NCBI GenBank assembly: GCA_951406725.2
Contig: OX597822.1
Coordinates: 44,330,001-44,394,000, forward strand
Direction: 5' to 3'
DNA length: 64,000 nt
Source: Octopus vulgaris
Taxonomy: Eukaryota
Positions 9,260 through 62,998 of this stretch are shown in pieces. The first letter of the stretch is position 1. Every line of letters starts with the position of its first letter. The notes below the pieces were generated by a model, which saw only the letters and a program-made list of their open reading frames with translations, was not told the origin of the DNA and made no database searches. Position numbers and translations under genes: made by a program.

Positions 9260-9619
9260 TGTGTGTGTGTGTTTGTTGGATACAATGTGAGACAACTGCT
9301 GTTGTCAGGCCTAACTCTACCACCATGACCGATATCCAAACTACAGTGGAAAAGGCTAGCTACTGGTTTTGTTTAAGAAGCAACAATAAGTGATGGCTAG
9401 ATAAATACTGAGCTTCGTTTGGTAACCAGTTGATCTAGCAAGCCGGGCCTCATATCATGAGGGATTCCGGTGCGCAGTGACGAAAGGTAGGCCCCGTAAC
9501 GGCGAGCATTCTCTCCTGATGATCTCAGACACTTGCTGGCCTCCGGTGTGCGGAGGTCTCGACTTGTAGCCGTTGCATGTGAAAATTGTTTGCAAAACAT
9601 ATATATATATATCTTAGAT

Positions 9620-37072: not shown

Positions 37073-37717
37073 AATCAGAAAATGGAAAAAGCCTAAGATT
37101 AACAAACACATCGATTGGACCACATTTATAGCTTATTTTTTTTAATACAAAGTATGACATAACAAATGGGTGACGTAAGAATTCTTACGGCCGTTTCCGC
37201 ATCCGCTCCCAAGCACTACTTATCAATAATTGCAAAAATAGAATTCTCCATCTTCATAGGACATTCGGATTAAGGCACGGAGCGTCATCAGAGTAAAGAA
37301 CACGACCATCCAATATAAACAAAGGGAAGGATGGATAGGAAAGAAGACATGGCCTAGAAACGGACCTACGGACCTCGTAGCCCCCAAAATAGTGGATTAT
37401 TTCCTTTTAATATATTGGCTTATAGGCTTCGTTTCTAGGCCACGTTTTCTTTCCTATTTCTTCTTCGCTTTGTTTGTATTGGATGGTCTTGTTCTTTACT
37501 CTAATGAAGTTCCGTGCCTTAATCCTAATGTCCTATGAAGAGGAAGAATTTTATTTTCGCAGTTATTTATAGGCGAGGCTTGGAAACAGATGCGGAAACG
37601 GCCGTAAGACTTGTTACGTCACCTATTTGTTATGTCATGCTTTGTATATTTAAAAAATAAGCTATAAATGTGGTCCAATTGATGCGTTTGTTAATCCGAG
37701 CTTTTCTCCATTTTCTG

Positions 37718-55644: not shown

Positions 55645-56211
<567 letters not shown>

Positions 56212-56555
56212 ATAAGAAGTATTGGAATCGCAAACATAGAGAAAGATTCTCGATATTCCTGCGCATTCAGTTTCCTCTTTCGTACACAAAATTTTATCTG
56301 TTAAGCATTTCCATAGAAAAAAGTTCTAAAGGTACGCGATCCGGTAAACACGAAATGCTATACTGCCTCTTGTCCACATGATTGGCATAATCAGGGTCAG
56401 ATATGCTCTGACATTTCTATAGAAGTGTGAGGGTGCCCAACTGCCTGGAAATATAGCTCCACATCTTCATAACGGTAATTCGCACTATGTTCAAGTAAAC
56501 GAGAGAAATTACAGCATAGTAATCATTCATCAGCTACAAGCATATATACATATGC

Positions 56556-57390: not shown

Positions 57391-57460
57391 TATATGCATG
57401 TGTACTTATATATAGCTTTCTTACAAAAGGGACTAGTACACTTAGCTTAGACTTTTGAGG

Positions 57461-57531
57461 GGACAACCAGATCGAACCATCTCAAGTGTAACTGTCCGAA
57501 ATGGTCGTAATTTCTGGTACTTGACTGATGA
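57461..57531 (+). ncRNA. Non-circularly permuted hammerhead-like RNA, copy 1
   Basis: GGACA-ACCAGA-tcga-ACCAT-C-TCAAGT-gtaac-TGTCC-GAA-ATGGT-cgtaatt-TCTGGT-ACTTGA-CTGATGA. Confidence 0.7.
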
Positions 57532-58119
57532 AAGAAAGCCAAGAATGACCCGTCTTCTTTTTCTTTGCCCGTCCGTCTAATTGTTTCTCTTGTCCGCCTT
57601 TGTGTTACCTATCTGTCCGAACGTTCTGATGCCCTCTATTCCGTTTTTGTTTCATTTATATATATACACACACACATACATATGAGTCAATTGTCTGGGA
57701 AATTATGATACGACCCATGGTAAATAATACAGCGGTGAAAGGACAATTAAATCTCGAGTGAATAGTAAATTTGTAATATATTTGAGTCTACACTCATTAC
57801 TGAGTCTCCCGTAAATGAATGGCCGGTTTTCAGTCTAGAACTTGCTTTCAAATAAGTACCATCATTTAATATTTACATATATGTACACATAGCTTTTTTA
57901 TATGATTATGCAATTATAGTTACAAATAGCGATTTACAAGCATAGAAATCGTGAAAAAACTTCGGTGGATGTTTAGACAAACAGGACGGGCAAACAGATC
58001 GATACATTTATTTCATAGAAAGATATATGTTATACATACACTTGTACACAAACGCACATGTAGAAGCATACTTAGATCGATCGATAGATAGATAGATAGA
58101 GAGATAGATAGATAGATAT

Positions 58120-62015: not shown

Positions 62016-62998
62016 AGCCGAAATTACTACGATGATCCGGTTCTTGACTGAAGACTGAGGGTTTCGAATGTCCTGTCCGTGTTTATTGTGTCGTCTTCTA
62101 AGAGTTATACGTTCTTGTCCATGTTGTAATTTTCTACATACCTTAACATATATTCCAGGCGCCCCGTACCCCCCTTAACATTTATGTGAGCACATATTCT
62201 TAATAATTGGTACGACTCTCTGTTTGTCTCTCTCTCTCTCTCATTTTTACTTGATCTGTCCCCCTCTCTCTCTTTTCTCTCTACTCATCCTCTTTTTCTC
62301 TTCTCTTTCCTCTGATTCTTTGGTCTAGTCTTCCACTACCCTCCTATTTCTTTGTCTCGCTCTGCACTCACAGGTCATTCTTCGACACCCATCCCTTCTC
62401 CTCTCTGATTCCTTCTTTCTCTCTCTTCTCTCTCTTTGTTGCGTTTGTCCCTCCTCTCTCTCTCTCCTCTCTCTTTCTCTTCCTTTGCTTCTCTTTCTTT
62501 TCTTTTCCCTCTTCTCTGTCACGTGACTGTTGGCCGAAATCTGCCTTTCAGCTTCTGACCCTCGTCTTGTTAACATCGCTGTTTTCGTCCGCCACTATAA
62601 AGGCTTTTTCCATTGCGCCAGAGAAAAAATTTGTTTGCTTGTTATCAGTCGTAAGACACTGTTGTTTTCACCGTTAATGCTTCTGTATTTCATGTTTCTG
62701 TATTCCATTATTGTTTTTTGTTTTTTTATATCTGTCCCTTTTGCTGTCCTGGTGTTCGTATGCATTCGATCCTTCTTCCAGGAAATCTACGCTTCCAGCT
62801 TAGTTTTTCTAATGCTCGTTGCTTGGTTTTTCTTGGAGGGCTGGCCGTGATCTAGTAATCTCAAGATTAATCAGCCGAAATTACTACGATGATCCGGTTC
62901 TTGACTGAAGACTGAGGGTTTCGAATGTCCTGTCCGTGTTTATTGTGTCGTCTTCTAAGAGTTATACGTTCTTGTCCATGTTGTATTTTTCTACATAC
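62016..62998 (+). mobile_element. Non-coding retrozyme-like element with 126-bp direct terminal repeats
   Basis: 62016-62141 equals 62873-62998 with about one mismatch; CT-rich interior; flanked by (CATA)n. Confidence 0.75.
62839..62911 (+). ncRNA. Non-circularly permuted hammerhead-like RNA, copy 2
   Basis: GGCTG-GCCGtGATC-TAGTAAT-C-TCAAGA-ttaat-CAGCC-GAA-ATTACTA-cgat-GATCCGGT-TCTTGA-CTGAAGA. Confidence 0.7.

Follow-up and report, generated by a model that had tools for sequence, protein, structure and literature searches.

A hammerhead-like RNA with a strand break inside its catalytic core, predicted to self-cleave at the 3' ends of Naiad retrotransposons and non-coding Penelope-like elements of Octopus vulgaris

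Based on sequence comparisons, we consider it very probable that the 3' ends of Naiad Penelope-like elements (PLEs) and of non-coding relatives encode a cis-cleaving hammerhead with a new wiring, which cuts at the predicted sites. Two copies of this RNA lie in the window analysed here, a stretch of 64,000 nucleotides from Octopus vulgaris (assembly GCA_951406725.2, contig OX597822.1, positions 44,330,001 to 44,394,000 of the forward strand). What is new is the break in the strand between A9 and G10.1. The additional helix P4 and the short linker between P1a and P2b, which a preliminary description of this DNA had listed among the unusual features, are present but are already known from the published type SGC (covered sections of PMC10085705).

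Both copies hold a complete hammerhead core whose strands follow the order P2a-P4a-P3a-H-P1a-P2b-GAAA-P3b-P4b-P1b-CUGANGA, with a P1a-P2b linker of 5 nt. In copy 1 (57461..57531, + strand; recognised from the sequence and by a descriptor of the permuted order), P2 is formed by 57461-65/57493-97, P4 by 57466-71/57513-18, P3 by 57476-80/57501-05 and P1 by 57482-87/57519-24; GAAA occupies 57498-501, CUGAUGA occupies 57525-31, and the predicted cut falls after C57481. The corresponding parts of copy 2 (62839..62911, + strand; sequence and descriptor) are P2 at 62839-43/62872-76, P4 at 62844-52/62891-98 with one bulged U, P3 at 62853-59/62880-86, P1 at 62861-66/62899-904, GAAA at 62877-80 and CUGAAGA at 62905-11, with the cut predicted after C62860. 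All of these parts lie where the preliminary description placed them, and each copy scores 22 base pairs by the descriptor. No site besides these two was found by the descriptor in 264 kb (the window plus 20 arbitrary 10-kb stretches), and ten dinucleotide shuffles of the 264 kb gave one hit at 16 pairs and one at 17. Since the 200 kb of arbitrary genome contained no intact copy by the descriptor, such sampling gave no new families. In Rfam there is no match at gathering score in the window and none at E<=10 around copy 2, and near copy 1 a single snoRNA fragment appears at chance level (E 9.2).

The catalytic positions are constant while the helices vary. Across 16 aligned copies, C3-U-G-A-N-G-A9 beside stem I is invariant except for N7, and CUGA, GA and GAAA are constant. 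Nine representatives with unlike helix sequences, chosen as well preserved and including three more distant groups (a tenth did not parse), pair in 133 of the 135 cells of P1-P3, with variation in P1, P2 and P3 alike; U16.1-A15.1 is U-A in all nine, R10.1-Y11.1 is G-C in eight and G-U in one, and position 17 is C or A, that is H. In an alignment of 14 copies from several subfamilies, which omits the Naiad-type rows misplaced by automatic alignment, 88% of 510 cells are paired, a share that is not a probability because the rows are related. None of 500 shuffles reached it, partners slid out of register pair in 28-51%, and 15 of the 37 pairs show changes on both sides. Compensatory change had been claimed for all four helices, and this holds with one reservation: P1 stays nearly constant (5 of 6 pairs) within the families represented in the window, so that its covariation rests on the more distant ones.

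The claim that the order is no circular permutation was also upheld. The blocks follow the order S-G-C, which differs from the circular order C-G-S of types I, II and III, a three-way junction free of pseudoknots. A second CUGANGA supplied by the 5' flank was considered and rejected, as there is no look-alike before P2a and none elsewhere in the unit. The disconnection of CUGANGA from stem II is equally clear in the window's families: of 62 copies, 61 have no more than one pair between P2b and the strand following CUGANGA, and 48 have 5-7 pairs between P2b and the upstream P2a.

The strand right after A9 is joined to the 5' flank in a helix, P0, and a hairpin, P5, ends at G10.1. In copy 1, P0 comprises 8 bp between 57415..57422 and 57532..57539 (both +), the latter directly after A9, and P5 (57423..57459, +) abuts G10.1; this hairpin is decayed in copy 1 and well paired in the family members L021 and L023. 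In copy 2, 62791..62798 makes 7 of 8 pairs with 62912..62919 (both +), again directly after A9 and in a register taken from the alignment, and P5 (62799..62838, +) ends directly before G10.1; it is weak in this family, with a U-rich inner loop. With 58-nt flanks, P0 and P5 are both formed in 45 of 89 copies versus 128 of 1,530 shuffles, with just 4 of 11 members of the cluster that holds copy 2 among the former, and P0 is the weakest helix (73% paired). A closing-helix test with 40-nt flanks had given no signal (p 0.06-0.98) because the 5' strand of this helix fell outside those flanks. The core stands as first described, but P0 and P5 had been missed, and they extend the structure by about 45-50 nt on its upstream side and by 8 nt on its downstream side. 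Where P4 meets P3 (57472..57512, +, in copy 1, with strands 57473-75 and 57506-11), most copies of seven of the eight clusters have NGA opposite 3 nt plus GAN. This pattern presumably fits the kink-turn consensus, and we refer to the joint as kink-turn-like. One of its strands is lost in the young family F2b, and in copy 1 it is damaged, with an A at 57509, a position that is G in 27 of 30 family copies.

Eckert et al. (2023) divide the hammerhead into blocks C, G and S, none of them assumed to be interruptible, which gives six orders, and report that types SGC (HRIMA-1) and CSG cleave in vitro (covered sections of PMC10085705). Measured against the same sections, our RNA resembles these two types in that block S leads into G through a short P1a-P2b linker and the core contains two pseudoknots; P4 is their helix 'I', the strand before P1b being joined with the strand after P2a; and the cyclic order, with the ends joined, is the same. 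Unlike SGC and CSG, it has its ends between A9 and G10.1, inside block C (P1b-CUGANGA-P2a), and it carries P0, P5 and the kink-turn-like joint in addition, so it would work like them but is not a member. The novelty that the preliminary description left to be settled against published permuted hammerheads is therefore partial: the order is none of the six types, but the wiring is that of SGC and CSG. In the covered sections, the examples of those two types come from metatranscriptomes and metagenomes and none from a eukaryotic genome.

With the canonical types I, II and III, including the minimal type I of PLEs (Rfam), the RNA has in common CUGANGA, GAAA, the UH site, G10.1-C11.1 and stems I-III. 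It differs from them in strand order and in having helices, not 1-2 nt, inserted in the core; one extra base between A9 and G10.1 is tolerated by a natural viroid hammerhead (PMC3705267). Neither a hammerhead with its ends between A9 and G10.1 nor a Naiad with a permuted hammerhead was reported in the literature we searched, which included few subscription papers and whose scope ended before the supplements of PMC10085705 and the bioRxiv preprint (10.64898/2026.07.22.740005). The window itself contains two ordinary minimal type I PLE hammerheads in inverted orientation, at 56117 (+) and 55749 (-), within an inverted repeat (55652-56214); their stem II arms are identical to the P2 arms of copy 2. 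Elsewhere in the window are a G+C-rich, apparently structured segment (9430-9550, +) in which GAAA is followed about 45 nt on by CUGAUGA and which fails the descriptor, and a long inverted repeat (37136-37656) with 227-nt arms that are 85% complementary.

Block C might not be truly split if the RNA cleaved as an ordinary type SGC, taking G10.1 from the strand after CUGANGA with a stem II of 1-2 bp, or if it cleaved across two tandem units, the CUGANGA of one docking with P2a of the next. Stem II is indeed as short as 1-2 bp in some natural hammerheads (covered sections of PMC3088659), and among 42 Naiad-type copies the nucleotides that follow CUGAUGA form 2 pairs in 32 and 5 pairs in five. However, the counts for the window's families run the other way, P2a covaries with its partner, and the strand after CUGANGA is itself paired in P0. 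The units are tandem, as docking between neighbours would need, but about 780 nt would still separate A9 from G10.1, so that the core would be split in this version as well. We therefore regard an unsplit block C as improbable and retain the split core.

Both window copies are parts of non-coding Penelope-like elements, with a fixed 3' end, ragged 5' ends and (TA)n targets. A single pattern covering both of their families has 5,597 matches genome-wide and none in a reversed control. Copy 1 belongs to an older, 5'-truncated element inserted in (TA)n (family F1; 57414..57657, +). It has 1,899 candidate matches in the 2.8-Gb genome, the best 40 of which (39 besides itself) are at 92-100%; the 5' starts of F1 copies are scattered, most copies stop in (TA)n at a common point about 130 nt downstream of CUGAUGA, and no tandem units were seen at 30 loci. 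Copy 2 belongs to a young tandem element between microsatellites (family F2b; 62016..62998, +) that comprises 1.15 units of an 857-nt repeat; a third, 5'-truncated copy begins at 62016 in the upstream partial unit, 13 nt after the cut site. Copy 2 has 1,016 candidate matches, and the 40 listed are identical over 141 nt and lie in arrays with a spacing of 843-861 nt and one ribozyme per unit. Among 30 central F2b copies, 14 end at +143 from the predicted cut, 15 continue into the next unit and one does otherwise. By sequence, a TATA-like box (62596..62601, +) is a candidate internal promoter, and a weak hint for a promoter at 62596 comes from a run guessed to be RNA, in which one contig begins at 62614. 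No RT-like ORF belongs to the units of the window families or lies beside them.

The young family F2b looks like a retrozyme. Like the non-LTR retrozymes of the covered sections of PMC7229834 and bioRxiv 10.64898/2026.07.22.740005, it consists of non-coding tandem repeats with one hammerhead per unit, and retrozymes probably move as circular RNA with the help of PLE enzymes (Cervera and de la Pena 2020, PMC7229834; Li et al. 2026). In the same sources, retrozymes have a type I hammerhead by definition or search and units mostly of 170-400 nt, whereas the hammerhead here is permuted and the unit is about 850 nt. A helper for F2b could be a young intact PLE with a C-terminal GIY-YIG (loci L200-L204; G000:C3, C1, C18, C14, C11), of which four of five copies are >99% alike. 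Its open frames of 699-762 aa (753 aa in the intact one) encode an RT and the GIY-YIG, and it shows inverted partial copies and (TA)n ends, no CUGANGA hammerhead of its own and no sequence in common with the units. Another PLE-like RT fragment adjoins two ribozyme copies, on the opposite strand, at L104 and L105 (about 2358-2918 and 1589-2480, +). The permuted fold with other helix sequences also appears in a further family at L207:2062-2140 (+), which has 2,440 candidate matches and rests on one copy, and in another at L185 (minus strand, about 164-240).

Naiads have been reported to be without a canonical hammerhead and flagged only as 'HHR_core' or 'HHR_half_core', with half cores 35-50 nt apart (Craig et al. 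2021, covered sections of PMC8557442). Of the 54 Naiad consensus sequences in the covered part of that source (PMC8557442), 53 were inspected by eye over their last 300-330 nt. The permuted order stands at the end of eight of them, from a comb jelly, cnidarians and cephalopods (Bfor, 2_Movir, Amil, Aacu, Anas, Obim, Ovul and Esco), with the exceptions of one mismatch in P2 in Esco and, in Bfor, a P1 of only 2 bp. Read in the same way, six nematode Naiads (1-3_Nbra, Hcon, Hpol and Asuum) are of type CSG and two spider elements look like further variants; the remaining Naiads among the 53 show no such fold by eye in these last 300-330 nt. A 3' stretch of Naiad-1_Movir resembles a twister ribozyme and is possibly a further ribozyme. 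Two other 3' motifs are possible ribozymes as well, one without CUGANGA that is conserved in bivalve, hemichordate and one hydrozoan Naiads, and a third common to five mussel and clam Naiads (covered part of PMC8557442 File S5). Both CSG ribozymes of Eckert et al. (2023), known only from metagenome DNA in the covered sections of PMC10085705, might derive from elements like the nematode Naiads.

Two of these readings by eye, the Ovul type and the coral type, were then checked computationally. The 3'-end motif of Naiad_Ovul has 333 exact matches in the genome and defines a third family, whose RNA parses fully in this genome with helix sequences different from those of the window families. At two loci (L165 and L174) the decayed remains of an RT, which match Pfam RVT_1 at E 1.3e-5, short of the curated cut-off, precede this RNA by 1.3-1.4 kb, and DKA, as the motif is defined in PMC8557442, occurs in 4 of 12 loci of the third family. 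Among 150 scored matches there is no intact Naiad; the Naiad matches scored are decayed, whereas F2b is very young. Metagenome contigs contain the coral-type motif at least 120 times; all six helices are retained in 20 full-length copies, among which P0, P1 and P4 show double changes. No linked RT was found at 120 metagenome loci, which leaves the published consensus, read by eye, as their tie to Naiads.

The window elements are like the Naiads of the covered sections of PMC8557442 in their (TA)n targets, heavy 5' truncation and partial tandems, and they also have the fixed 3' end. Unlike Naiads they are non-coding, with no ORF combining an N-terminal GIY-YIG and an RT with DKA, and they are without long sequence similarity to Naiad; window 11-mers were not found in the supplement of Craig et al. 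(PMC8557442). The fold and a short P4/joint motif that the window families have in common with the Ovul type suggest, without proving, that they descend from a Naiad. As for the broader link to Penelope elements that had been named at the outset, the fixed 3' ends, (TA)n insertion, 5' truncation and RT remnants behind the third family support it.

If the 3' cleavage product is reverse-transcribed, genomic copies should have their 5' ends at the cut or slightly downstream of it, and seldom slightly upstream. Of the copies flanked by (TA)n in the F2 families, 135 begin with the nucleotide that immediately follows the cut, compared with 43 distinct loci that begin anywhere in the nine positions before it. 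On the minus strand, 848 starts fall within -18..+12 versus 220 within +13..+37; among the first 100 listed minus-strand rows are 27 distinct loci, of which 24 start at +1..+11, none at 0..-9 and three further up. In the metagenome family, ungapped extension places 66 of 98 scored copies at +13..-2, a few of them longer copies with gaps, and one at -3..-20, after 22 had been dropped at contig ends; a gapped method, which overextends, gives 43 of 97, then 11 versus 24 expected (P=2e-4). Two unrelated families with dissimilar sequences, one of which is not inserted in (TA)n, thus both show an edge of 5' ends at the predicted bond. Starts in the first 12 nt after the cut may be raised in number by A+T microhomology with (TA)n, which may add to the pile-up in this genome but does not explain an edge shared by both families. 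None of the sequencing runs that contain these elements is recorded as RNA. In two runs guessed to be RNA (X1 and X5), contigs read through the cut without a difference; they may represent uncleaved RNA, re-ligated RNA or DNA. Contigs cannot show RNA ends, and a circle junction equals a tandem junction in sequence.

These contigs would suit a conserved protein-binding or RT-recruiting structure that derives from a hammerhead and has lost cleavage, the pile-up then reflecting RT stalling or (TA)n microhomology. Such a structure would also accommodate starts that spread over +1..+11 and do not fall at +1 alone, and in the canonical PLE hammerhead cleavage is dispensable for insertion in vitro, with RT starting at fixed internal sites (PMC11167929); these internal starts fit the fixed 3' ends seen here. 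But the catalytic positions and U16.1 stay constant and position 17 avoids G, even where N7 and the helices differ, and the edge recurs in families that differ in sequence and target. Stalling would moreover meet little structure, since the partner strands of P1a should already be copied when the RT arrives. A loss of cleavage is accordingly unlikely in our judgement, and the cleaving hammerhead remains the preferred reading. Chance pairing in a high-copy repeat can practically be dismissed: although the helices are short, the copies within a family are not independent and the nested MFE of both window copies is no better than that of shuffles (z about -0.8, pseudoknots lying outside the model), it is already contradicted by the descriptor controls (at most 17 pairs in shuffles versus 22), by covariation, by the double changes in the metagenome family and by the recurrence of the same order with different helix sequences in at least five sequence groups.

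We propose that the RNA folds into the usual hammerhead active site, with P4 clamping stems I and II, by analogy with type SGC. The only connections of CUGANGA to the core would be P1, the A9-G12 contact and helix P0; together with hairpin P5, P0 would take the place of the single bond between A9 and G10.1, and the kink-turn-like joint would let P4 fold back from stem III. Transcription may start from the TATA-like box at 62596 or arise by read-through, and the RNA would be cut after C57481 or C62860. Tandem copies would release unit-length RNA, probably ligated to circles as proposed for retrozymes (covered sections of PMC7229834). The 3' cleavage product would serve as template for a PLE-type RT/endonuclease acting in trans by target priming at a nick in (TA)n, with copying predicted to begin at one constant position within the RNA, which lies 143 nt past the cut in F2b and about 175 nt past it in F1. 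Copying up to the cleaved 5' end would make genomic 5' ends accumulate immediately downstream of the cut; copies running past the cut may stem from uncleaved RNA or ligated circular monomers, and copying round a circle would give 850-nt tandem arrays.

A wider reading, which we favour while granting that it is far from certain, is that the Naiads of comb jellies, cnidarians, cephalopods, nematodes and spiders carry hammerheads that all have the SGC/CSG wiring and differ in their opening points. The form described here would then be a seventh natural permutation, opened inside the catalytic strand and with a multi-helix insert between A9 and G10.1, which cleaves in vivo, sets the 5' ends of insertions and has seeded a large retrozyme-like family missed by type I searches. 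The split-core order would break the six-order rule for hammerheads, and non-circular permutations, so far known from rare environmental RNAs, would be represented thousands of times in the genome of an animal. A hammerhead in which a helix carries the ends out of the core would also be a new scaffold for switches and for the production of circular RNA. The edge of 5' ends would be a DNA-only record of cleavage that makes the open role of PLE hammerheads testable, and the permuted fold would offer a direct answer to why Naiads seemed to be without the ribozyme of other PLEs.
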